DNA of 63,658 bases, the filler included, from Diploschistes diacapsis (taxonomy: Eukaryota): assembly GCA_023645945.1 (NCBI GenBank). It is 28 parts of 28 records of this genome, joined end to end, with 100 filler letters (N's around TTAATTAATTAA, not from the genome) between each part and the next. Parts side by side here need not be neighbours in the genome. Positions count along the whole stretch, not along the records: positions 7,821 to 29,429 come from JALAIB010000305.1; 27 more parts are not named here. One strand, given 5' to 3'. The translations under genes were made by a program, and so were the position numbers. Below, piece by piece: positions 1-22,715 of the stretch; the first letter of the stretch is position 1, and the number at the start of each line of letters is the position of its first letter. The notes under the pieces are model-generated. The model did no database searches, was not told the origin of the DNA, and was given only the letters and a program-made list of their open reading frames with translations.

Positions 1-105
1 TATAACTGCTCTACCTTCTTCTCCTGCTTGCACTCCTCTTCTAAACGAGACCAAACCCACCTTGACTCTACTCGTGTATACCTTGTATAGATAGAGATCA
101 TAACA
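1..105 (+). mobile_element. 3' end of a Gypsy family-A LTR inserted into a gag remnant
   Basis: Ends ...GATCATAACA. It is the reverse complement of the LTR ends at 33394 and 57263. Confidence 0.75.
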
Positions 106-980
106 CGTAGCTATCTTTTTGGCTTCTCAAGTATACGTCGAAATAAGATCTCATCCATATCAATACGCGGTCACGTATAAATCTTACGGCGAAAACTGTT
201 CGTTTCCTTTAATCGTTTATGATATACGGGTTCTAATAGAAGTATATTGAGAATTAAAGTATTTAGTGCTTTAGTTTCTTTCGGTCTTCGTAGAACGTTA
301 TTAGCTTTATAATTTTTATAGTAGGTTTTCTGTACGATTTGTCTTTGTTAGGTTTATCGTTATTTCCGGGGTCGTCGCCTTTGGCTTCCGTTATGTCCTT
401 TATACGGACATCGGTTTCATTTAGTGGCGTTGCTGCCCTAGATACGCGAAATGCTGCGGATCTAGCCATCGGTGGCGATCGTTCGGTTATATTGTTAATA
501 ATATTTATTCTTAAAGATATTTAAATGTTATAATTTCTATTTATATAAAATATACACGAATAGGATTAAGATAAATTTAATCTTTATTAAAAAAGGAGTA
601 AGATAGAAAAAAAAGATAGAATAATTATAGGCCTTAGACTCTTTCTGAAAAGAAGGTTTTAAAATGATAAAGGTAACGAATATAGATTGATCCTAAATAA
701 TGATTTAAGATATTTATAAAAATAAACACGTTTTTTTTTACGAAGATAAAATCGTGTTTATATATAATCAGCTCGCTCGTCGTTTATTATAAATTTAGCG
801 AGCGGTGTTTTCGAGGCTCGCCGTTTATAAAAATAAACGCGACCGTCGAGCGGTAACGAAAGCCTGCTTATCGCTCACGAGAATGAACGCGACCAGTGAG
901 CGCATCACGTGACCCCAGGTCCCGTGACTGATCTATATACAAAGCTGGGACGTGCCAAGTCTGGTACTTGGATCGTAACA
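106..980 (-). mobile_element. Ty3/Gypsy 5' LTR (526-980) and RIP-mutated gag start
   Basis: The LTR begins TGTTACGATCCAAGTACC on the minus strand, as at 1415 and 4165 (+). A degenerate gag follows (FYEDRKKL...RTVFAVRF), homologous to 62210-62820. Confidence 0.8.
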
Positions 981-1465
981 CTTAAATAAGTACGTTATTT
1001 TATATTTGAACGATATTTTGATTTATTTTAACGGTATATTCGAAAATTATCGATAGAAGGTTAAGGAAATATTTCGACGATTTGATAAGTATGAACTTCG
1101 TTTAAAACCAGAGAAATACGTATTCTATAAAACAGAAATCGATTTTTTAAGACACGTTGTGAGACGAGAAAGCGTTAAAATCGACCCGAAGAAAGTTCAA
1201 TCGATTTTTAAATAATTAATCCTAAAGAACGTAAAAGATATTTAATCTTTTTTAAGATTCGTTAACTATAATCGATAATTTATTAGAAATTATTTAAAGA
1301 TAATAGAACTATTAAAAAAATATTTTACGCTATAAACAAAGCAAAAAATCCGATAATCTTAGGCACACTAAACTTCAAGACGGGGAAGCTGTTATTAAAG
1401 TTCGAAGAGATAACTGTTACGATCCAAGTACCAGACTTGGCACGTCCCAGCTTTGTATATAGATC
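981..1465 (+). mobile_element. Gypsy reverse-transcriptase remnant, then start of a family-A LTR at 1415
   Basis: Translates to KPEKYVFYKTEIDFLRHVVRRESVKIDPKKVQSI with RIP stops. Same segment occurs at 35329-35674. Confidence 0.8.
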
Positions 1466-1566
1466 ANNNNNNNNNNNNNNNNNNNNNNNNNNNNNNNNNN
1501 NNNNNNNNNNTTAATTAATTAANNNNNNNNNNNNNNNNNNNNNNNNNNNNNNNNNNNNNNNNNNNN
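1466..1566. other. Artificial contig linker (N-run, TTAATTAATTAA, N-run); first of ~28 identical linkers
   Basis: The same 12-mer, which gives stops in all six frames, is centred in every ~100-bp N gap. The flanking contigs are ~1450-1465 bp and decrease steadily in length. Confidence 0.97.
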
Positions 1567-2701
1567 CTACGATCGAATATATTTTAATTATTAACGGGAT
1601 ATTACCGCCTATAATCATTTTTAAAGCATTACATATTAATATTAACTAGATTCTAATCGAAACGCCTCGAAATTAACTATTTAATACTAATAATAAAAGA
1701 TAAATAATAAATAAACACGGATATTAATAACTTATACGTATCTTTAAACCTTTAATTAAACCGAATCGACCCGAAACGCGTCGTTTATTAATTATAAACG
1801 GTCATAATAGCCACATTAACGCCAATATTATTCGTTTTTATATGTCTAATCGAATCGATCTAATGATATTATTTCCGTATAATTCTCATCTTCTTTAACC
1901 ACTCGATGTCGCAGTATTTTCGCCGTTAAAAAGCGCGTTGACGTAAAAAACGGATTATATTACTCGACTTAATAGATCGCGCATGGCACGCTCAGAATAG
2001 ATCGAATTATTTCTAATAACTCGGAATCGAGCTATTACGAATCGAAACGCTTAAACAGACTTTATAAATACTAGATTATAATTTATTAATCCCATAAACG
2101 TATTTAATAAACTCTATTAGACCTACCGGACCCCTTCATCTCCATTTTATAATCCTCTTTCAACCTCGAATCAATTCGATTTAAATTTATCCTTATTATA
2201 TAATTCTCTATTAAATGCGACCGAATTACGAAAGGCCAATAAAGAATTTAATTAGGTATTGCGAGCCGTTCTAAAACAGATCAGTCTGATTCGACGTTAT
2301 TCGAGTCGAGTAACCCGTATGCTTAAATCGACGTATACTAAACTCATAACGCTTCGTAAAAAAAACCGAAAACAAAAAACGCTTCTTAATAATCGTAAAA
2401 AACGTAAATCAAACAAACGAATCGAATTAAAAGATCGTTTTATATTTAGTACAGACGAAGTTCTTAAAATAATAACTCGGGTTAAATCGAGTCGAATAGT
2501 TTCGAAACGACCTACAACGCGTAAAAAACGTCGTCGCATTTCTGAAATCGAGAAAGATAAAAAGGAAAAAGATAGATTCGATTTAGATCGATTAGATTCT
2601 AATTACGACGAACAGGTTATATCTAAAAACCGTAGAATATTAACGGTAGTGATTTGAGGTAACCGGACTCTAGGGGTGGCCGGACTCACCGTCAAACACG
2701 T
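1567..2701 (+). mobile_element. Fot1/pogo-type DNA transposon, 3' part, RIP-mutated DDE transposase and right TIR
   Basis: Motifs RRLLIINGHNSH and FPYNSHLL*PLDVAVFSPLK. Ends ...CCGTCAAACACGT followed by TA. The same terminus recurs near 33243, 38143 and 39279, and left ends (TAACGTGTTTGACGG) occur at 38481 and 40177. Confidence 0.85.
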
Positions 2702-3668
2702 TATATTAAGATTATATAATTCTTATCACGGCAATTCTTAGGTTTATAAAATTCCGTATAATTTAGATATTCGTATTTTTTTACACGACAAATATTATAT
2801 GCGAAATAAAATTCTACTATTATAATGATTTTCTTTATCGTTAATAGATACGTTTTTAATTTTATTATTTTTCCGCTATAAATATTAATCGGACATTCTT
2901 TTGTTTTGTAATCGTATAAAAGATAATAATCCTCGTGTTTATTATTATATAATATTTCTTTATAATATCGTTAGAATGTTACGTCGATAATTAATTTTCT
3001 ATAAAAGACGTATATCAATGTTTCGTGTTTNNNNNNNNNNNNNNNNNNNNNNNNNNNNNNNNNNNNNNNNNNNNTTAATTAATTAANNNNNNNNNNNNNN
3101 NNNNNNNNNNNNNNNNNNNNNNNNNNNNNNAGAATCCTGTATTAGACGTTGTTAACGTGGCGTTAACGGGTACTGTATACGTAATCGGATTATTAATAAC
3201 GTATATAACGCCCGTTATTGGCGCAGTAGATTTTAATACATTCGGTTTAATAGATTTAAATTTAAATTTAGATTTAGTTCTTTTTTTTAAAACCTTAACC
3301 CGCAAGAACCTCCTTATTAACCGTCGGTTACTATCATTTAGCTTAAATTGATCACGTGGAATAAAAGCAGGGGCCTTTAGGGTACTGTGATCCTCGATAG
3401 AAGCAAATGATGAAGGTTTAGCATGATTTAGCTGAATTTTTGCCTTTATCGTTGATACGTTTTTGGCGTGCGTAATTAACCCGTCGTTAATATTTCCAAT
3501 ACTAGGTACTAGATCGTTGGCTAGACGTCCCCGTGGCGTTCGGATGGGTATTACGTTATCGCCGTTTCTATAGCTTTTAGGTAGTTTTAGTTCTTAAAGG
3601 ATAAGCGTTTTATTCTTTTTAAACTTGATTAAATTAGTTTTAATAATCTTTTAAACATCGGGTGTTTA

Positions 3669-4164
3669 TGTTGAGCAGGCAGGCAGAATGCATGGCTGGG
3701 AAGTTCAGCTGAACCTCAGGTTCAGGTTCAGTTCAGCTGAACCTACTGGGGTTCCTGCTAATCCTAATCGGGAATAGTGCAAGTCTATAAAACTTAATGG
3801 ATCCTATTAATATAAAAGCTTACATATAAACTCTTCCTTCTAATTAGACCTCTAGATATCTAAACTTCAATATATACATTACCCAAAAGGTATAAGCCCG
3901 GGTTAATTTACTATCCCGTCGCGTTTATATATTAAAAGTAATGTCTCCGGGCAAGTATTACCGTTATGACTGCGGGATTTAATTACGCTACCTATTATAG
4001 GTTAAATTGAAGAGATCTTAAAAGCTTAAGATCTGGATTATAATATTTTGGGATGATTAGATCTAAAATAGAAATTAAATTACTTATCAATAAAACGCGA
4101 GCACCGACTACGCTGCTCTGGGAAAGCTAAATTAATTAAATCAAATCAAAATTCAGGACTTGAG
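3669..4164 (+). mobile_element. Ty1/Copia family-B 5' LTR with PBS and leader
   Basis: TGTTGAGCAGGCAGGCAGAA start, followed at ~3889 by GGTATAAGCCCGGG, a degenerate GGTTATGAGCCC fungal copia PBS. The leader resembles 47821-48100. Confidence 0.75.
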
Positions 4165-4594
4165 TGTTACGATCCAAGTACCAGACTTGGCACGTCCCAG
4201 CTTTATATATAGATCAGTCACGGGACTAGGGATCACGTAATGCGCTTACTGCTCGCGTTTATTCTCGTAAGCGGCGAGTAAGCTTTCGCCACCGCTCGAT
4301 AGTCGCGCTTATTTTCGTAAACGACGAGCCTCGAAAATACCGCTCGTTAAACTTGCGATAAACGGCGAACGAGTTAATTATATATAAACACGATTTTATT
4401 TTCGTAAAAAAAAACGTGTTTATTTTCATAAATATCTTTAATTATTACTCGGGATTAATTTATATTCGTTATTTTTATTTTTAAAAAATCTTTTTTTAAA
4501 GATAATTTAAGATTTATAATTGTTCTATTTTTTTTTCTTATTTATATTCTTTTTTTAACAGAGATTAAACTTATTTTAATTTTACTCGTGTATA
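4165..4594 (+). mobile_element. Gypsy family-A LTR, truncated by gap
   Basis: Reverse complement of 526-980 and 33394-33848. Confidence 0.85.
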
Positions 4595-4694
4595 NNNNNN
4601 NNNNNNNNNNNNNNNNNNNNNNNNNNNNNNNNNNNNNNTTAATTAATTAANNNNNNNNNNNNNNNNNNNNNNNNNNNNNNNNNNNNNNNNNNNN

Positions 4695-5415
4695 AATTTA
4701 TAATAATTATGAATTTTTTTAAAGATCAATAAGAACAGTACCCAGTTATATATAGAAAGTTATATATCCTTATAAAAAGGATTTAGGACTGTATTCGACA
4801 ATATTATAATTTATTAGAATATAGATATAAAGGTATTACGAATACTATCAAAGCCATTGAACGAAACTACAATTTCGAAGGAATGAAAGAACATATTATT
4901 AATTTCATTAAACAATGCAACAGCTATTAAAAGAACAAATATTTAATATATAGAAAATACGGCATTACACAAACGAAACCCAAATTAGAAAAAACATATT
5001 ATTTAATTATAATGGACTTTATCACGAAATTACTAAAATCTAAAGATTTAGTAATAAATATCGAGTACGATTCTATCTAAATAATCGTCGATAGATTCGA
5101 TAATAAACCAATATATTTATCATTTAGGAAAAACTATAATGCTCAGAAGCTGCATGTAATTTAAGCCGATAGAATAACTAGACACAACGGCCATTTAAAA
5201 GAAATTATTAGTGATCGGGGATTACTATTTATATCTAATTATTAAAAGATAATGATAAAAGTCTTTGAAATAAAGCTAAAGTATTTAATAATCTTTCATC
5301 CGCAGACAGACGGACAGACAGAAAGAATAAATCAAACATTAAAATAAATACTACGCCACTACGTTAATTACGAGATAAATAAATGGGTAAAACTGTTACT
5401 AATAATCGAATGGAG
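4695..5415 (+). mobile_element. Gypsy integrase remnant (RIP)
   Basis: MDFITKLLKS, EIISDRG and FHPQTDGQTERINQTLK motifs with many stops. Confidence 0.85.
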
Positions 5416-6257
5416 CCTAAAATTTCGCCACCATTAAAGAAAGAATGTTAAAAACACGGATATGAAATCATCTAGGATGACTATAATAGGCGATAGTTGT
5501 AAGGCTAAGCGACTAGCACGCCAAGAGTCGGACAAGCGGCGCTCAGGGTCTTGGCTTGCTAGTACTTGAAGGGGGATTTTGCCTTTCTTACTCTCTCTTC
5601 TTCTTTAGTAATTAGTCCTAGCATGAACCTGCCCTGCGTATAATTATCTTGCCATATTGTCGTATTTTATCTTTTATAGTTTTAATTACTTTACCTTTCT
5701 TAAAAACGACGATCCGACAAGATAGCACGTCCTTCGCAACGTACACGTAGAGTAAACCCACGTAATCAAATTAAAATAAAAAAAATAAAGGAAAAGAAAG
5801 AAATAAACGATCTAGAATTACTTTATTTAATAAAGAAGATTTAGATCATATCGAGTAATAAAAACGAAACTCGCAATCTAAAAGTAAACATTAGTAAACG
5901 AGTCGTTAAAATAAAAAGATGGTTTCGAATATATATTAAAGGATATATTAAAAATAGTCAAAAATATATTATTAAAAATAAGATAAGATATAAAATTTAA
6001 AAAAAGCTAGGTAGTAGAGGCGAGAAAAGATGCCCTCGTCGAAAAAATAAAAAGAATTATTATTAAAGTAGCATTAATAACCGAGGTATTGTATAAAGGA
6101 TAAATAAATTAAAATCATTTAAATGCCGTAAACCGCTACCGCGATATTAAATTAAATNNNNNNNNNNNNNNNNNNNNNNNNNNNNNNNNNNNNNNNNNNN
6201 NTTAATTAATTAANNNNNNNNNNNNNNNNNNNNNNNNNNNNNNNNNNNNNNNNNNNN

Positions 6258-6793
6258 AGATAAAGCAGTTATAGATCTTAGATTGTTTCTAGAAAAAAGG
6301 TTTTTTAATAATAAAGATACCGAATAAATTAATCTCGAGCAATAATTAAGAATATTTTTAAAAATAAATACGTTCTAAATTTATGAAGGTTATAACGACG
6401 TTCTTATATAATTAATAATTCTCTTAATAAAATAAATAAATAGATGAATAGAGTTATCGTTCTTTTCTTTTATTTATAATTAAGTAGAACGGTCTTTTAG
6501 ATCTTTTATTTATCACGTGACCCGTGTTACCTTAATTAGATTATATATAAGGAATGGTTAGGAAATGCCCGACTAGCTATTGTGTGTTAAGTACTATCGA
6601 CTAGTACCTTGGATCGTAATAAAAACTATCGTTCTCCCGTTTTATCTATAGAAGGTAAAATAGCCTCTAAGGCTTTTTATTTATTACGTGATTAATGTCA
6701 TTATGATTAAATTATATATAAGAAGTGATTGGGCTAGGCCCGATTAGCTGTAAAATACCAAGTAAACTATTATTTAATCACTTGGATCGTAAC
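6258..6793 (-). mobile_element. Two nested or tandem family-A-related LTR fragments
   Basis: Two termini on the plus strand: CTTGGATCGTAATA (~6621) and CTTGGATCGTAACA (6793). They match 62821-63275 and 34215-34634. Confidence 0.7.
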
Positions 6794-7878
6794 ATTAACT
6801 CGCTTACGATCAGAACGTACCTATTTTTACGGATCTTTTAACTCGATTTAACGTATAAAGAACGGGTTTAGATCGTTATTTGATTCGAGAAAATATTTAC
6901 GGGATTAATAGGCCTACGGACGCGTATATAGGTTAAATATTTAGGCGGTTATAACGTTAATATAGCGATTTAAATTTAAAAACGTTCTCGATTATTAATA
7001 TTTGCGCTTATACGAGACCCGGATCGCGAACAACGTTCTAACGAATTAAATTATTAATTTAAAAAAAATAATAAATCGATTAAATAATTTAAGTCTATTT
7101 AACGTTATTTTGGTTTATTAAAACTTATTCCTCTCGACGTCGATTTCTATATTTCGTAAATTTATTATCGATTTATTTACGTTTTCTCGTATTATTTCTA
7201 ATACGGGACCCTTTTAAATTAACTCGGTTTCGCTTTTTATATCCGCTCGTATTCCGTTTATAATCCGTACGGAACCCGTTTCTATCCGGTTAAACATAAT
7301 CTCGATTAATTTGAAAATAACGATCGAAATTTATATTAACGGTTTTCTTTCGTTTCTTTTTAGTTTCGTTTCGATTGTTAATCGTATCTTACGTTTTATC
7401 GGTTCTATATAAAGTTTCGATAAATTTATTTTATTAAAAGAATATCTCGAATTAATATCGTCGATTAATATTTAAAATAAATATTTTCGATTCGAGTCGG
7501 ATTTTAATAACGAAACAACTTTAAAGAAAGAAACATACCGAACTTATAAGATCGAGAAGATTCAGTTCGACGATTATTACGCGAGCTGACGCCGGACAAA
7601 AAACGGACAAAAACGAAGAAAAAAGGATTAAACGAGGGGCCGGAACGGGTTCGAGAAGCTATAAAAAAATATTTAATTAATTAAATAATTTTATTTAATG
7701 TATTTAGATTTCTTTTAAAANNNNNNNNNNNNNNNNNNNNNNNNNNNNNNNNNNNNNNNNNNNNTTAATTAATTAANNNNNNNNNNNNNNNNNNNNNNNN
7801 NNNNNNNNNNNNNNNNNNNNCTGTTTCCGAAATCGCCTTCATGAAACCTCCCCCTCCCCTTCATACATGTACCTATAG

Positions 7879-8529: not shown

Positions 8530-11500
8530 ATTAACGCGATTTGTACCTTGAAACTCAAAAATTATCCAAGAACGAGATCTAATGTGTGGTCAACGTCGTT
8601 GATCGCTTGTATCATTTGCAGGTATCCGTCACTAAACGGGATGCGGATTCCTTGGAACGATGAAATATTCGAAAACGAACGGGAGATCATCCGGTCGATG
8701 AAACTGGAATACTTCTTCCCGATGATCGCCGATGCCTCGCTTGTGCAGATGCTGCTATCGTACTTGAAATTGAGACTGTAACCCGTGATGGTCTTTGACA
8801 CTTCCAGATGTAGCACATAGCCAATCGGCATCGTTACACGATGTCAGCCATGACCATCCAGCGCATATGCTTCACCGACGTAGTTGCGGGCTCAAATGGC
8901 TGGAACAAGTATAATAAGCGACTGGCGGTCGTGGCATCAGCAGATCCTAGTGCTTTGTTGATGTTCGTCGAGTTGATTGACCCGCGTTCAGTGGATTTCC
9001 GAAAAAGATCCTTGTGGACTTGAGAAGGCTCCGTACGTGAGTATTGCTTCCGAACGAGCCTCGAAACGGGGGGAAGTTGGCGCAGTTACCGTTAATAGTC
9101 TGTGCATCTTCCAGAGAGATATTGAGACCGGTGATGAGATTGTCATAGACAACGTCGGGTTTACCGCTCAGCTCTGATAGAAGAATGGTAAAGGCAGACT
9201 GGAAGACGATGGGAATTGTGACGCCGCACTGCGCAGCGAATCCATCGACTCGAATATCATACTGCAGAGTGAATGTGGTAGAAACTTGTCCACCGCGAGT
9301 AGCTTCGGAGAGGGCGGGACAAGGCTTGGGAGCATCGTGCAGGAGCTTGACCCAGAAACTCAGGGTATCTTTCTGCTGCTGCTCTGGTTTGGAAAAGATA
9401 TGACCGACATAGTTTGAGAACTCCAGGGAAGGAGGAAGGACGGAATTCCTGTACCTAACCTTGAACTGTTCGTCGAATATCCTAAAGTAAAGTGCCGTCA
9501 TACATCGCATGATGGATCTTGATAAGAAGGTGCTTCTCTCCGGTCGAAGGTGTATCCAAAAGCCAATAAGTAATGAATGGCTTGCCATTTTCGACCTGGA
9601 AGATCTCTTCCCAGGTCAGCACTGCAATCTGCGGGTCTAGGCGTGGATCCTTTGTAACAATCTGCACCCATCGTTCATTATCAATGGTCCACATCGAGCG
9701 GAGTATGTGATTGTGTGCAGTAAGCCGCTGGGTGTGATCTCACTCCATGAGTTGAAATCAAAGTCTGCAGGAAGTTGCCGCAAGGTTGGACATTGCCAGA
9801 ATTGCTGTTTCGCTGCACCTCGAATCAGAATTCCTCAACGCCTGGTACAACCGGCCAGGCTGCTTTGTATATTTGAAACTAGGAATAGCGGCAACTCCCA
9901 AGGCATTCCTAAGCCGGCCAGAGAGTTTGGAGGTGCATAGTGGTGACGTGGGGCCGCAAACAAGCTGCCATATCTTGTAGTACCGGAAACGCCATAACAT
10001 CAGCTACAGAAAGCGAGCACCCCGATCCGCGGCACTTTCTGACAAGGTTAATTGCTGAAATAGAGTCGCCTCCAAGCGGGAAGAAAGAGCTCACGATGCT
10101 GATAGCCTCCTCGTTGACGCCGAGAATCTCAGTCCACAGTGAACGTAAAGCAGACTGTTCTCGGGTTTTCGGCTTTATATCACACCTTGACCCTCGCCAG
10201 CAAAATTATTGATCGATAATGGTATTATCCATCCCCTGCACAAGAGATGCCAATTGAAGTCGATTAGCATTTCCAGAAGGCAGTTGAGGGACTGACTTTA
10301 GAGCTATCCAAACCGATGGAACCATGTAGGATGCCAGAGTAGTAAGCCTCAGGCTTAGCGAGGTTAGCAATTCTTTGTGCTGGTCAACGTCAAGAATCAA
10401 GCCATCAACAGGCTCGCCACAGTCTATTTGGCTTTCGTTCCGTATCTCAGTCATCACGACAATGGCATCCGGCACAATTTTAGTGGCTAAAAGGGCACTC
10501 TCGACCCCTCCAATTTCGATCCGATGGCCGTTGACCTTGACCAGACTATCTTTTCTCGCCCGCAACATTCTATCTGCTGCCGAGGGCCCCAGCGAGCAAG
10601 ATCGCCTGTTCTGTAGATCTTTCTGGACCCATCGTGACGAAAGCCTTTTGCGTAGCTTCTGGTAGGTTCAGGTACTCTCGTGCTAATTGACAGTCCCCGA
10701 GACAAAGCTCGCCGATAGCGCCGTAAGGCATGGGCTTGGTCCCATCCTGCTCAAGAATCATTACGGAGCAGTGTTTCAGAGGTCTGCCAATGATTCTTCA
10801 ATTAGAATGCGGCCCGATAAACTCGGCTGCGGAAAGGATAGAAGCTTCTGTGGGTCCGTACCAGTTCATGACTTTGCAATGTTTCGTCCATATTTCTGCA
10901 AGATCTTGCGGAACTTGTTCCCTAGCCAGATATATTCCTTGCACACTGAGCAAATCTTCAGGCTTCAACAACCTGGCAACGGTCGGCGTAGGGAACAATG
11001 GTCAATGCTCATCTCATTGATGACATCAGGAAGGTTGGTAAGCATGTCCTCTGATGAAGCCATACAAAGCGGGGCCACAACTTTGAAAGTGCAGAAGATG
11101 TCACCAACGGCAACGTCGAAAACATAGGAGAACTCGCCAGGATTGTTCAAAGCTTTCAGCTGCAAGAATGTTATTAATTCCAGAGGAGATGGACTTGTGG
11201 AAGATAATAGGCCAGATGATCTGGTGTCAACCCAGGATTTTGAAAGTTGCCATCATGATTACGTTGGCAATCGATGTCAAAAATGTCCAGAACTTGGACA
11301 CTTTTCATGGAGTCGTTGAAAATAGGAACGTAGTCCTCGGTCGTAATTACTAACATCGCCGATACGTCTTGAACAATGAGGTTGTTTTTTTCAGCTGGAT
11401 TATCGGGATCCAAAGGTACAAAAGCTCCTCCGGCCTTAAGGATAGCTAGTATACAGAGTATCTGCTCCGCAGACTTGGGCAGACAGATAGAGACCAGCAC

Positions 11501-12050
11501 ATCTGGGCCAACACCTTGTTCTCGTAGATGACTGGCGAGCTTGTTGGCTCTAGCATTCATTGTAATAGGCGTTTCGGTTTTGAAGCAGAGGCCCTGCAAG
11601 TCCCCCAACAGCTGCAGTGATTTCTTCGAAGGCTTGCGCCGTGCATGTTTCGCGTATCATGGATCGGAACGTCACGACTTCATAACGTCACGGCGAATGT
11701 GACATCGGAATTTCCTGTATGCCGCGATAGAATCAAAGCCCAAGCAGCGTAGATCAACACCCCAGTGGATGAGGTCGCCCTTGAGGTCAGGAGCCTGAGG
11801 TCCCCTGTACCGGTTTTCTTGGACACATTGAAAACATCAGTCTCCCAGCTCATACAGGTTGGTTGAGCATTCTTCAAATATTCTGTCCAAAATGTCTTTG
11901 CAGCACCCACGTCAGAGCTCTGCAAATGCTGCACAAAAAGGGAGAATTGAGGACGATGCATGAGCGACTTTCCCTTATATGCTGTGTTCATATCATCGAA
12001 AGAAAAAGCTGGACAGCAAGAAATCAAATAGTCCGTGATGCATGCTAACT
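8530..12050 (-). pseudogene. NRPS pseudogene (partial C - A - T - C), possibly siderophore-synthetase type
   Basis: Motifs are spread over several frames: ILKAGGAFVPLDP, FDVAVGDIF, NWYGPTEAS, IYRTGDLARW, VKVNGHRIEIG, the T-domain FFPLGGDSISA and the C-domain HHAMYDG. There are many frameshifts and stops, and the A10 Lys is lost (PSGN). Confidence 0.88.
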
Positions 12051-12803: not shown

Positions 12804-13885
12804 AATTTTAATCACCGCCAAATACTGTATTAGTGGTGAATGGTACTAGGATATTAATATAATAGTATTTAAAGTGGGGAGTTTTGAGGATAATATTAAA
12901 GAATATTAAAATAAATAAATGCTAGGTTAATTCAGCTTCAGGTGACAATGCAATTCATAAGTAAATGATTTTGATAGTATCCTAATCGGGCATGGCGTTT
13001 GTGCCTTACTGTACCGGCGGTCCACTAAGGTGGACGCCGGCGGGATACTGAAAACCCCTTTACTTCATTTCAAGCATTAAGCCGAAAACTAAAGGTAGAA
13101 GGAATTCCCACAGTGAGATTAAGACATACGTGCTGTATTGCATGTTCCAATGCGCGGCGGGGTGTGGTCAGAAGTCGCGCCCTATGTCTGGATTTGAAGG
13201 CGGCACGTGAAAACTTCAACCCGATGCAGCAGAATAACATAGGATGCTCGAAAGCCTAGTCTGTCAGACAGGGATCGGGCAGTATGCACGGTAAAGCCGT
13301 TTAAAGGAGCGATGTCACCAGAACTGGCTCAGGCATAAGGTAGTACCGAGTCTATCCACGGCCACGGCCTGGAGAGAATTTGGAGTAGCTTAGGGTAGGT
13401 AAGGTATGCAGGTGAGACAGGTGACACGGACCCTTCTACGCACATCACATCACAGCATCTGCATGAAGTAGGAGTCCAGTATAACTAACGCCCGCTTTCT
13501 GTGAATGCTGCAATGTATCTATCTACTGGGTTGAATGGGCCGCCAGTACCAATCAGTTAGAATATGGATGAGGTGACTCAAGAAGCAGCAACTTTCATCA
13601 GCCGGGTCTGGACTGGTCCCTGAGAAGCTTCTCAACACTCGTGCATCTGGGTCTCCCACTATAGCTCTACGGCCTAGCAAGAGCCCACACAGCTGGCTAC
13701 CCCAAAGCACTCCAATATATTCGCAAACCCCTCAAACCCTATTCGACGCCTTTTGCGGTCTTGATGGTGGTCTCTTATAAACTCAGTGCCTATTTAATGC
13801 TACGCTCACCCACATGTGATAACCATCAAACCATTCTTTCCTTCCCAATCTCAGCTAGTGGTCTAATCTCAGCAACTACTTCAAA

Positions 13886-15046
13886 ATGCCTCTCGACCCA
13901 AGCCTCCTCACCTCGGCCATTAGTGCCATGGTTGGATACCCCGTGATTACGTATGAAGAGTACCAACGCAATCGGCCAGCGGGCTTTCATCCGCTTGACA
14001 TGGAGGCATTCCACAAGTCAGTATTAGTTGCACCAGCACCGGCACCAGCACCGGCACCGCGACCGCCGCCGCCGCCGCCACCTTACTCTGGGTCTGTACC
14101 CCCGCCGGGGACGGGATCAGGGTCGGGAACGGGGTCGAGCTCGGTGACGCAGCCTGGGATACAGCCAGGGACGCAACCGTCGCAACAAGTGCATCAGCCA
14201 TGGACAGGACTATGGTCGCAAGTGGTAACTCGAGCGGGAGAGGTACTCCAGCCGGGGGCGACTACACAGGAAGTGCAATCGACCCAGCCATCGAACGCCC
14301 TAGTCCCGGGCCTGCTCAGCATATTCGTCAAGACGTTGACGGGCAGAACGATCACGATTCCAGTCACATTGAGCGAGACAATCTACGAGATCAAGCAGAA
14401 GATTGAAACGAAAGTGGACATACCAGCCGAGGAACAACGGCTCGTCTATGCCGGGAAGCAGCTCGAGGATGGCCGGACCCTGCGTGACTACCAGGTCGAG
14501 GAGAACGCAACTCTCCACCTGGCGCTTAGGATTCGCGGCGGCGGCCCCACTGGAATGTACCTCGCGCAGGACTTCCTTGATCCGAGCTATGATTTCGACT
14601 TCACGAAGGTGAACGACTACGGCGTGTCGTTCTCCCGCGGGAAGGAGGTGTACCAGCGCCCGACCGGATGGCAGCGCTTTGCGCTCAAGGTGGACAACAA
14701 GTACGGCTCGAATCTCACTTGGTTGGGCAGCTCGAACGTGACCGGTGAATGGCCGGTTTCGTATCACGGCACGAGTCTGGCGGGCGCAATGTCCATCGCC
14801 GACGAGGGTTACAAACTGGCGAAATCGAGGAACTTCGTTTATGGTCGCGGGATCTATTCTTCGCCGCGACATACGATTGCTGAGGCGTACGCCCAGACTT
14901 TCCAGAAGGATGGGAAGAAGTACAAGGTTATCTTCCAGAATAGGGTGAATCCGGCCCAGCTTCAGAAGATTCCTAAGATCGATTACTGGATTAGTGCCGC
15001 GGATGCGGATATTCGTCCGTACGGTCTATGTATCAAGGAATACTAG
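13886..15046 (+). CDS. Pro-rich/PPxY + ubiquitin-like domain + NEURL4-type ADP-ribosyltransferase domain protein (386 aa)
   Basis: Intact ORF. A 76-codon Ubl spans 14315-14542 ([13 protein letters not shown]...[19 protein letters not shown]...LRIRGG). ART motifs are [36 protein letters not shown] and [10 protein letters not shown]. Confidence 0.88.
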
Positions 15047-15672
15047 AGAACGAAAGCTTAGGTGATGAAGCTCTTAGGAAAATGCATCTTTGTTTTCTCG
15101 TGGAGATTCTACTCCATCGAACTTTGAATCTCAATGACGAAGAAAATGGAAGTAGTATCGAAAGCCTCATTTACGCTTTTCAACTAAGATACTAGTCGTT
15201 TGCCCAATGAAAATTAATGTCGCGAGTCCGATAGGGTAATGGCATGAAGGACTTTCTTGTCCCCACACAATATGATTCCTTTTCCTGTCGCTTTGCGCGC
15301 TAGGCAAAGAATCAGCACGCAGAGCATTGGTGTGAAGAGGGGGGGGGGACATGTCCACACGAGACGCACTAGGTAACGAACAGGGTTGAAATGGCGATGC
15401 TACAGCTGCATTGCCACTTCGAAACCGACCGTCGAGATGGAAAGTGGTCGGGCTCGAAAGAAAACAATGGCCTCGAAAACCAGTCGGCTAAGTAGACCAA
15501 TATTCACTCCATCTTCGTCAGCTGACAGCACTGTCGTGTCGTCTTGGAATTGCACACTAGTCATAATTAGGCAGATAGGCGTGCAGGTGCTGTGGTGGCT
15601 TATAAATTGCAGGCTCACAGCCGTTGATGCTTTCTGTTATTCTTGACCTGAAGATTGTTCGCAGCTAGCAAT

Positions 15673-16731
15673 ATGTCAAACATTTTCTGCCTTCAATGCC
15701 GACAGCGACCTAAGAGTACGGATCACACGTTCTGCTCCAAGCAATGTGGCCGTACCGCTGCCGATTACGCTCCAAGTCTTCTGTGGATTCCCACTGACCA
15801 TGTTCAGTACGCAAATGGTGTGTGCGTCATCCTCGTGCCCAGGATGCGAGTTCTAACAGTATCCTTACGGTCTCCAGTAGCACAGCATTGGGCTGATGGC
15901 TGGAAGAACGGACCAGCTCCGGCCATCAAAGCGATGTACCTGGTCACCTGGAGCAAGGCTTCACGAGATGACTTCGAGAGCTACCGGTACGACCCAGTTT
16001 CTGGCTTTGCAGAGGGGAGTCGATTAAGAAGACCCTGGATACTAGCCGCGAAATCGAGTCCCAGACGAACTTTCGTGCAAAAGGTTGGTTTGAAGGCAAT
16101 GAGCAGAAGCGCTTCTGGGGGGTTGATAGAGCATGCGATATCGGCGAGAACGGGGTCACTGCCGTATGTTACAAAAGCAACTGCTGGCTTTGTACCGTTC
16201 TCCAAAACGGATTAAGGGGATACTTGAGAGCTCAGCGGACTCTGGGGCTGTGAGCACCACCGTTGCATAAAACTGCACCGACACCCTCTTGACATTGATG
16301 GCCTAGACACGGCAATCGGCTAGGGCCTGGCATATACACTACCAGGACTTCCTCCAAGTACGTTCGATCCCGTGTTCGTTTTTCTACAGTTTTAATGATT
16401 TACTGTTTCTCCCAGAGCAGCAGACCACGCCGTCAATGTCGGCCATGCATCGAGCTCGAATGTGCATGTCATGGTCATGTGTAGGGTCGTGATCGGGAAT
16501 TCGTACATCACCAAGACAGAACAACCCACTTTCCACAGCCCTCCCAGCAAGTACCACTCCGTGAGTCCTGCCATCGGCCAGGTGGGTAGTCTTTCTAATT
16601 CATATATCCGCTAACAGTGACTTGTTGCGCAGGTGCTCGGAGACCCTGGGCCAGGCAGCAGCTTTGCTAATAACGAGTTGGTGGTATACACCGAGCGGGC
16701 AATTCGCCCGGCCTATGTCATTGTGTACTAG
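15673..16731 (+). CDS. Six-exon Zn-finger + PARP-like ADP-ribosyltransferase-fold protein (250 aa)
   Basis: Exons 15673-15817, 15878-15986, 16046-16249, 16307-16357, 16416-16560 and 16633-16731, all with GT-AG introns of 57-72 nt, give a 753-nt open frame. Motifs: CLQC-x11-CSKQC, GNEQKRFWG, RLGPGIYTTRTSSKA, MVMCRVVIG and NELVVYTERAIRPAYVIVY. Confidence 0.85.
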
Positions 16732-17210
16732 ACATGATCTGCGAACGGGCTACAGCTTGTGTATTTAGGAATTATACGAGATAAGATGTGGGTTGGGGGT
16801 AGATGCAGATAGAAAGCAAGAGGTATCCATGCTGGGATGATCTGAAAACCCCCATCCAAGCCGCACCTTTACAAAAATTATTTCAAATCACAATACTGGT
16901 ATAGCTGTTGCATTGTGTGAGTTCCTGCTCTATACCACTGAATATTTTGAACAACTGAAGATTTAAACGATATGCATTACGAATTAATTTTATGACCGTC
17001 GATAAAGCATTATTAATTCTTTTATTCCTTTTTAAAAAACTCGCGGGACATTCAAAACAAAGTAAACATATTTTAGATTATTTTCGATAAAGATAAACGC
17101 CATAAAAGAATACAATCTGGAAGAGATTTTACCATTGAAGAATAATTTAGAAGTGAATTTAAACATGTAATATAAAATATGTTGAGAAATAATTAATTTT
17201 GGCGTTATAA

Positions 17211-21438: not shown

Positions 21439-22715
21439 CAGTCACGTGCCAAAAGTAATGGTCCCTACCTAAATTATAGTAGACATCACCAACTTTGGAG
21501 ATGCGATGCGCACCCAAAGAATGTCCTACAAATGCGCTTTTTAGATCATTTTGATGCCCTTTATTCGTAGTATCTATTAATACTTTGTTTACCACCCCTG
21601 CGCGTCGTATACAGCCTGAATTCGCGTAGGTATCGAGTAGATTAATCGAGCAGGCAAATCCCACTCCCTATCTGCCGTAATTTGACCAAATGCCTCGATA
21701 ATAGCAGCTTTTAAAGCCTGTTTCTTATTATCCTTGCTCCCACGCATTGTTTTAAGCTCTGAATGAAACCGAAATACCTCCTCTTTTAATCTAAGCCAAA
21801 AATGCTCTATAGCGTTTAAATCTGGACTATATGGTGGATGATCGAGAACCCAGACGCCGAGACTCTCTAAAAGCGTTTTAACAACGTTTGCAGTGTGTAT
21901 AGAAGCATTATCCTACAAAAAACCTTGCCCAGGTTCGTAGATTTGGGGCAAAATATCCCTTAATAAAGCACAATAAGCCTCGGCGGTAGCACTTCGTCCA
22001 TTTATATAGTAATCTTCGAAGAAACACCACACGACGCGTCCATCGGCTCTCATACCAGCCCAAAGCATGATGCTTTCCTTATTTCTAACCGTTTTTGCTA
22101 GGTGATCGGGAAGCCATTGTTCTCCTATATATCTCCATACCCATTTTCGTACTTCACCACTTCCTATTGCTATAGAGCACTCGTCGGTGAACCAAATATT
22201 AACAAAATCCTCGGCGCGCCAAGTTCGGTGTATTCGGGAATACCTCAGGCGTTTTTCCGCATCTTCAGGCTCTAAATATAGCTTCCACCGCATCCTATAT
22301 TTTTTGAAAGAGGGGTCGATGTCGCGGAATCTTCGGCGCACTATATTTTTGCTGATAGACGAGATATCGAGCAATTCAGACCACTCAGATTCTGGATGGC
22401 GTCTGGCCGTTCGATAGAGCCTATTTTCTTGATTTTCGGACGTTATTCGAGGTCTTCCGGAGCGCTTCAGATCATCTTGGTCTTCATCACGCTCTGAAAC
22501 CTTTACTATTGTCTTTTTGGCTGTAGAATAAGGAATATTTAGCCTATTGACTGCATTTTTCAGGATAGCACCTGATCTGTATGCGCCTATAAGCTCAGAG
22601 CGCTCCCAGAGCTTCAAACGACGATATGGTGGCATTATTGTAGAAATAATAGTAGGCATTTATTGTTTATTTGCACCGATTTAACCGAGGGACCATTACT
22701 TTTGGACTAGTACTG
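21439..22715 (-). mobile_element. Full-length Tc1/impala-like DNA transposon (1277 bp)
   Basis: TA target duplication at both ends. TIRs are CAGT-N6-CCAAAAGTAATGGTCCCT and enclose the transposase. Confidence 0.93.
21577..22659 (-). pseudogene. DD34E transposase with premature stops
   Basis: RSGRPR HTH linker, WFTDEC, FL*DNASIH and HPPYSPDLNAIE (34 residues between D and E). The stops are at positions consistent with CAG>TAG and CAA>TAA. Confidence 0.92.

Follow-up and report, generated by a model that had tools for sequence, protein, structure and literature searches.

The locus and its gene

The window, the whole stretch of 63,658 nucleotides (filler included) of Diploschistes diacapsis DNA that was analysed, carries on one contig a gene for a protein of an N-terminal segment, a low-complexity arm, a ubiquitin-like domain (Ubl) ending in di-glycine (GG) and an ADP-ribosyltransferase (ART) core (Table 1). 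The reading frame is single and uninterrupted. An intron 5′ of the Ubl was considered and found unnecessary, because close homologues in metagenome loci match the N-segment and the Ubl-ART part in one frame. The neighbouring gamma-tubulin-like, fungal rhodopsin-domain and mannosyltransferase genes are fungal in type, and the host is therefore a fungus. One copy of the gene was found in its own genome (29-Mb assembly, 4,361 contigs). None of the 283 reading frames of window 7821-29429 matched 80 related metagenome loci, many of which are short.

Table 1. Features of the gene and of the surrounding window.
Feature	Position	Strand	Description
Whole gene	13886..15046	+	ATG 13886 to TAG 15046; 386 aa, intron-free frame
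N-terminal segment, aa 1-46	13886..14023	+	helix, short strand, helix, strand, helix; predicted part of ART body
Arm, aa 47-143	14024..14314	+	disordered, Pro/Gly/Ser/Gln-rich; length highly variable among homologues (alignment)
PPPY, aa 64-67	14075..14086	+	not conserved; terminates a CCG/poly-Pro repeat
Ubl, aa 144-219	14315..14542	+	L8, R42, V44, K48, H68, A70, R72, R74 (ubiquitin numbering)
Di-glycine, G218-G219	14537..14542	+	predicted DUB cleavage site, then G-P-T
ART core, aa 220-386	14543..15043	+	PARP fold; H294, Y324, Y335, Y367 at third-triad position
Second PARP-like gene	15673-16731	+	627 bases downstream, same strand
NRPS remnant	8900-12050	-	in fragments; condensation and AMP-binding matches, broken by stops and frame changes
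Tc1/mariner-type transposase frame	21913-22659	-	HTH_Tnp_Tc3_2, E=2e-5
Outside the gene's contig	1-7820 and 29430-63658		much AT-rich sequence, GC 0.28-0.32

The assembly is supported by two runs: a single contig of run X1, which is possibly the source of the same DNA, spans window 13300-16900 with zero differences, and run X2, from a separate study, covers all 30 bins of the stretch with a close allele. Ten in-frame substitutions of this allele were checked among those listed. All five in the Ubl and ART were synonymous, and two of the five in the arm changed a residue, those in the poly-Pro repeat being excluded. The run that best matches the DNA, and may be where it comes from, bears the label lichen metagenome; no RNA run was listed for it.

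Ubiquitin-like domain

The Ubl is exactly 76 codons long, matches Pfam ubiquitin at E=7e-26, shares 59% identity with ubiquitin across positions 1-70 and superposes on its fold at Z 16, in agreement with its first-pass annotation as clearly ubiquitin/NEDD8-like. When the full-length model was compared by fold, only ubiquitin folds came up. The beta-grasp fold, Arg72 and terminal di-glycine are structural features that it shares with conjugatable (type I) Ubls. NEDD8 carries Ala72, and since position 72 is Arg here the domain is of the ubiquitin type and not of the NEDD8 type. Its C-terminus reads LRIRGG and the ART core begins at the very next residue, as had been described.

A PARP-fold core with an H-Y-Y triad

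The C-terminal core matches Pfam PARP (PF00644) below the cut-off (E=1e-4, 22.1 bits; gathering cut-off 26.7), and a sequence profile ranked PARP16 first (E=6e-4), with motifs that aligned to PARP16 and PARP10. Comparison with PARP catalytic domains, which the first-pass annotation had proposed as a check, was made with the model of a homologue without Ubl, P0173 (248 aa, ART 54% identical). All 17 of its structural matches at Z>=5 among 48,161 chains were PARP-family domains. The best was PARP16 at a modest Z of 8.2 (rmsd 3.8, 111 aligned, VIA-align range 8-248), with which PARP3, PARP1 and PARP4 tie within 1 Z. Foldseek gave seven matches at E<=0.001 for the same model, to PARP4, PARP16 and PARP1, and BFVD only generic PARP-like matches.

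The His of YHGT and the Tyr of GIYSSP, already noted in the first pass, are present as H294 and Y324 and are near-invariant in the family, as are the two other positions scored with an ART-only query (H294 145/145, G295 143/145, Y324 143/145, Y/F335 142). The third-triad register, which was fixed by spacing to the IRP motif (11 residues before its Pro) and not by structural superposition, holds Y367 here and Glu in the neighbouring PARP-like gene. The catalytic Glu of H-Y-E polymerases is thus missing; among 286 members the residue is Tyr in 225 and Glu in 11. The earlier remark that DYW stands where an acid is expected holds in substance, since the residue is not Glu, but the one in register is Y367 and not D366. 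An acid one residue before the register, D366 here or Glu (179/286), might nevertheless serve as a functional acid or helper. Chain formation is limited to H-Y-E enzymes according to the available text of PMC8932523, and with an H-Y-Y triad mono-ADP-ribosylation would therefore be expected. The PARP16-like triad thus suggests a mono-ADP-ribosyltransferase, a reading already advanced in the first pass, with which the retained NAD-binding residues and the non-Glu third residue are consistent. We consider it likely that the enzyme is active in this sense.

An enzyme probably interrupted by an insert

The first 46 residues, overlooked in the first-pass annotation, are conserved across all full-length close homologues in the alignment and fold with pLDDT 86-95 in the full-length model of the 386-aa protein (pTM 0.57). 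Of 142 N-termini, 72 contained this segment according to an iterated profile, whereas no shuffled control did. The profile also found it in 7 of 31 Ubl-less members, in some of which no more than about 10-25 residues separate it from the ART core. P0173, modelled as one unit, reached pTM 0.83, and its N-segment had pLDDT 84-94 across aa 11-50. Because the ART core makes up just 71% of the P0173 chain, a pTM of this height suggests that the N-segment is confidently placed on the core. In addition, the alignments of the P0173 model to PARP16, PARP3 and PARP4 begin at residues 7-10, as judged from the range ends given, and therefore the PARP matches include the N-segment. Taking pTM and pLDDT of this homologue (ART 54% identical), and not contacts, as the basis, the N-segment very probably packs on the ART core. 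Since members without a Ubl also have the segment, and its predicted fold is joint with the core, the arm and Ubl are best interpreted as a stretch inserted into a split enzyme.

Conservation of the di-glycine

In a close set of 53 proteins (our own and 52 near-full-coverage matches among 120 matches listed, biased by the Ubl+ART query), G75 and G76 were invariant (53/53) and R72 was kept in 51. With an ART-only query GG was kept in 65 of 116 ART-adjacent Ubls. In the pooled set of 377 proteins, 309 with the ART and 254 with an ART-adjacent Ubl, GG terminated 179 of the 254 Ubls and was absent from 75 (about 30%). The first-pass annotation had staked its reading on conservation of GG among homologues, and GG is indeed kept in this majority, without being invariant.

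When 152 Ubls less than 55% identical to ubiquitin were considered, retention of G75 and of G76 was 62% each, on a par with core residues, whereas I44 was kept in 35%, K48 in 43%, K63 in 10% and the median position in 35%. GG was found in 85 of these 152 ART-adjacent Ubls versus 3 of 46 diverged Ubls lying upstream in the same family. The difference was also seen with representatives at 50% identity (38/82 adjacent versus 3/27 upstream, Fisher P=0.001), and was weaker within multi-Ubl proteins, where the adjacent Ubl had GG in 15 of 34 and any upstream Ubl in 10 of 34.

The residues after GG show a further pattern. Pro was found in none of 179 cases at +1, in 39 at +2 and in 31 at +3 (0, 10 and 10 of 61 among the 50% representatives), and in 5 of 69 Ubls without GG it occupied the corresponding place. 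As Gly is the +1 residue in 113 of 179, probably by inheritance, the proline test was also made on the 26 non-Gly representatives alone, giving P about 0.01 for sequences that are not phylogenetically independent. Ub-Pro is the sole linear fusion that escapes DUB cleavage (PMC9703124, available text), and the exclusion of Pro at +1 fits a requirement for such cleavage. Across 36 distinct loci, each of the two GG positions shows the full set of four Gly codons; GG was present in 39 of the 60 rows, from 81 loci, that matched the motif, and 3 of the 36 tails are not ubiquitin-like.

GG retention drops from 58/62 to 21/54 with falling identity to ubiquitin, GG is lost in whole clades (Rotaria), and the tail consensus decays to hydrophobic-x-G-G (L/I/V/M at position 73 in 60/65, Arg at position 74 in 44/65). 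Because GG is retained in diverged Ubls and lost in upstream ones, and Pro is excluded at +1, selection would account for it rather than inheritance, and the di-glycine looks to be under selection for cleavability, with relatedness among the sequences uncorrected. The Ubl-GG-ART architecture pointed out in the first pass is thus a conserved family trait. Cleavage cannot be obligatory for the family, since about 30% of adjacent Ubls are without GG and some members have no Ubl. The GG could also be kept as a flexible hinge ahead of the first ART strand.

Family distribution

A search with the ART alone returned 1,638 clusters (50% identity) at E<=0.001 and 826 at E<=1e-10. Ascomycete members are scattered (Drechslerella, Arthrobotrys, Dactylella, Metarhizium rileyi, Cladonia, Cenococcum, Hyaloscypha, Elaphomyces and Xylaria), and the others come from many Glomeromycota, with several paralogues each, and from Dictyostelium, Hydra, bdelloid rotifers, nematodes and fish. 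The distribution is patchy, and paralogues are also many in Hydra, rotifers and Dictyostelium. In databases the members are labelled "ubiquitin" or "hypothetical". The best 149 representatives (self dropped) comprise 116 with an ART-adjacent Ubl, 1 with a non-adjacent Ubl, 17 with none detected and 15 short or truncated; by the N-segment profile analysis 31 of the 149 show no Ubl. With 116 of 149 carrying the adjacent Ubl, the fusion is the usual form of the family and not a local accident.

In a tree of 43 rows the query groups with Orbiliomycetes and Metarhizium rileyi sequences (99/89), a placement that hints at horizontal transfer. No prokaryotic or viral relative was confirmed by narrow pattern searches of genome_contigs (3 matches), viral_contigs (27 and 15 matches) and plasmids, from which absence is not implied.

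Two unusual members are single records and could be gene-calling fusions. P0362, a Logan record, joins the N-segment, a Ubl-GG, a Hint domain that matches Tetrahymena BIL2 (PDB 6Y75, E=9e-5), a near-canonical ubiquitin-GG, the family ART and WWE domains, and P0365 has an E2 domain, a TB2/DP1 domain and the family ART in one predicted chain. The Hint layout of the former and the E2 domain of the latter would tie the family to ubiquitin-type processing. In another single record, P0150, Ubl-ART units flank protein kinase domains. The fish members P0270, P0341, P0123 and P0352 are Ubl-less, and several have repeated ART units. A relation of these to the interferon-linked fish ARTs is possible; the fish members show only a weak DUF3990 match.

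Comparison with known systems

The nearest known counterparts are the NEURL4-like ARTs and the Tetrahymena BUBL locus. NEURL4-like ARTs are a described family (available text of PMC3417536, PMC7955679, PMC8932523 and PMC10450202), and the catalytic motifs of NEURL4 are given as HGS and ELEW in the available part of PMC8932523. Both groups are small PARP-related ARTs outside the Pfam PARP cut-off, and on the motifs in that text HGS and ELEW correspond to HGT and x-x-(Y/E)-W of the Ubl-ART family, in which a NEURL4-like Glu precedes the Trp in 11 of 286 members. NEURL4 differs by its six NHR domains, an H-Y-E-type triad and reported PAR synthesis, whereas the Ubl-ART family has mostly Tyr at the third position, plus the N-segment and the Ubl insert. 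NHR repeats are absent from the 386-aa protein, for which Pfam shows ubiquitin and PARP-like domains only. The wider motif pattern of the family presumably resembles that of NEURL4. No NEURL4 or other Neuralized-domain protein was among the 49 profile matches of 554-2000 aa, and none was found in the atlas by word-based searches, which may not reach NEURL4.

A Ubl adjoining an ART has already been published for the Tetrahymena BUBL locus (PMC8616854; available text of PMC9200820), where the upstream Ubl is conjugated via intein chemistry (PMC8616854). The BUBL layout (Ubl, bacterial-intein-like Hint, Ubl, ART), which P0362 shares, likewise has a Ubl immediately preceding a C-terminal ART. Unlike BUBL, the 386-aa protein lacks a Hint/BIL domain and would need a DUB. 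PDB names the BUBL parent an arginine ADP-ribosyltransferase, which suggests a different ART clade.

PARP16 (ARTD15), the best match by profile and by VIA-align, has the same H-Y-Y triad (bioRxiv 10.64898/2026.07.25.740670, available text), and its N-terminal helical extension lies beside the ART with NAD not blocked (PMC10450202, available text). It differs in having no Ubl and is 10% identical over the structural alignment. PARP16 is also tail-anchored in the ER, whereas the best 19-residue hydropathy window of the 386-aa protein averages 1.24 and lies at the Ubl start. FUBI, a Ubl fused to a ribosomal protein, is processed by DUBs. In linear fusions of ubiquitin to ribosomal proteins, too, the ubiquitin ends in GG, is joined to its partner and is removed by DUBs (PMC9703124, available text). 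In both cases the Ubl is N-terminal and discarded, whereas the Diploschistes Ubl is internal, behind an enzyme segment.

Only two main types of fungal PARP, PARP1 and PARP-Ubc (clade 6A), are recognised in the available text of a 2026 survey, where mentions of "ubiquitin" concern the E2 domain (bioRxiv 10.64898/2026.07.25.740670). These are also fungal PARP-fold enzymes, and PARP-Ubc is an ART joined to an E2, but the Ubl-ART family is without WGR/regulatory domains and without a C-terminal UBC domain. The Ubl-ART type was not found in the available main text of that survey or of PMC2964712, and the family is not mentioned in the available text of PMC7949102, PMC9503650 and PMC11354881. The literature searched gave no account of a split ART into which a Ubl with retained GG is inserted, although de Souza and Aravind 2012 and Aravind 2015 may depict the fusion. 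A Ubl adjoining an ART is already in print as BUBL, and a GG-retaining Ubl inside a split ART is apparently undescribed.

The arm and its PPPY motif

The arm was modelled with pLDDT <50 at aa 47-55 and 74-138, and the X2 allele carries a 9-nt in-frame length variant in it. The PPPY noted upstream in a Pro-rich arm in the first pass is there, at the end of a poly-Pro repeat whose length differs between alleles. The link then drawn to Rsp5 is not supported: PPxY is found in 5 of 237 arms versus 3.7 expected from composition, and arises in 5-20% of shuffles of the protein's own arm (P=0.05-0.20). The close homologue P0007 has a PPPY at a different arm position. Rsp5/Nedd4 PY ligands are recognised by a conserved PPxY in a disordered region, and the motif present here is not conserved. 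The PPxY is treated as a chance occurrence on these counts, and it is very doubtful that it matters functionally.

Proposed mechanism and alternatives

The best explanation, on which we are evenly divided between belief and doubt, is a DUB-cut split H-Y-Y mono-ART with a Ubl insert, whose fragments stay associated. It would be a cytoplasmic PARP-like mono-ADP-ribosyltransferase with its chain interrupted by the looped-out arm and Ubl, the N-terminal 46 residues being predicted to pack on the ART core. Conservation suggests that a ubiquitin-specific protease, most simply the fungus's own USP/UCH, cuts after G219, and cleavage at GG in vivo is likely. In the first pass such cleavage was taken to release the ART. 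The cut site remains as predicted, but release is probably wrong, since an N-segment that folds with the ART core would hold the cut fragments together. Cleavage would then probably yield an enzyme of two chains, in which a long flexible arm carries the Ubl with its GG C-terminus free. Such a form may license activity, may relocate the enzyme via ubiquitin-binding proteins, or may allow the Ubl to be conjugated carrying the ART. As its residues suggest, the enzyme would use NAD+ to add single ADP-ribose units to a target. A defence or stress role may be proposed solely because of the patchy distribution and lineage paralogue expansion. That the Ubl is conjugated at all appears improbable. It is unlikely that the cut N-segment-arm-Ubl is a modifier that delivers itself, first loaded by the ubiquitin E1 and then attached to target lysines with the ART core held non-covalently.

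A different possibility, which we regard as somewhat unlikely, is that the Ubl is never cut and serves as an integral adaptor for ubiquitin-binding proteins, for Cdc48 or for the proteasome, or puts a limit on the half-life of the enzyme; the GG would then be a relic of the capture of ubiquitin, or a flexible hinge. This agrees with the adjacent Ubls that are without GG and with the fall in GG retention as identity to ubiquitin decreases, and the ART-linked ubl5 of Tetrahymena was reportedly described by Chiarini in 2019 as non-conjugatable. It does not readily explain why diverged Ubls keep GG longer than K48 or the I44 patch, why GG is lost in upstream Ubls, or why Pro is excluded at +1 only. 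The Ubl may instead be too diverged for host DUBs to cut, and be cut by a broad-specificity DUB or papain-like protease (LxGG) of an invader, switching on a toxic or signalling ART. Viral PLpro recognises LXGG, the tail consensus of the family decays to hydrophobic-x-G-G, and the patchy distribution with many paralogues is in keeping with such a role. Host DUBs, however, cut Ubls at 59% identity to ubiquitin, and at that identity this Ubl retains R42, R72, R74 and a near-canonical tail. There is also no sign that the N-segment or the Ubl blocks the NAD site, and the PARP16 extension leaves it free (PMC10450202, available text). We regard an invader-triggered switch as quite unlikely. The first-pass scheme, with recruitment of Rsp5/Nedd4 by the PPxY and an ART domain set free to diffuse by cleavage, can point to the PPPY here and in P0007, but the motif is about as frequent as composition predicts and terminates a length-variable repeat in this protein, and the N-segment should hold the fragments together; we regard it as highly improbable.

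Cross-talk between ubiquitin and ADP-ribose is under active study, and to our knowledge its known cases (DTX3L/PARP9, SidE, PARP-Ubc) rely on domains or proteins that are separate. In the present case a single small protein contains a probable DUB site within a PARP-like enzyme, and family members that have GG, lack GG, lack the Ubl or bear an intein occur naturally. If only the cleavage of the preferred split-enzyme reading is true, this would be a new kind of PARP-like enzyme, matured by a protease, and the third PARP-like type of fungi after PARP1 and PARP-Ubc. If conjugation is true, an ADP-ribosyltransferase would be aimed in a new way. If the Ubl in fact delivers the enzyme as a modifier, the ubiquitylation machinery would park an ADP-ribosyltransferase on its substrates, and a widespread eukaryotic defence family would couple ubiquitin conjugation to mono-ADP-ribosylation; intein-bearing members such as P0362 would do the same without a DUB.

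Other PARP-like sequences of the genome

The second PARP-like gene of the window has an N-terminal Cys cluster and, from reading the sequence, several apparent introns. Its motifs are RFWG, with Trp replacing the expected His, GIYTT and NELVVY..AIRP, and one exon weakly matches Pfam PARP (E=0.024). It was not found next to the relatives in the 80 metagenome loci. The sole PF00644 match above the cut-off in the genome (G000:C470:3010-3171, L082) lies inside a 1,297-codon open frame, the size of which fits a gene of the PARP-Ubc type.
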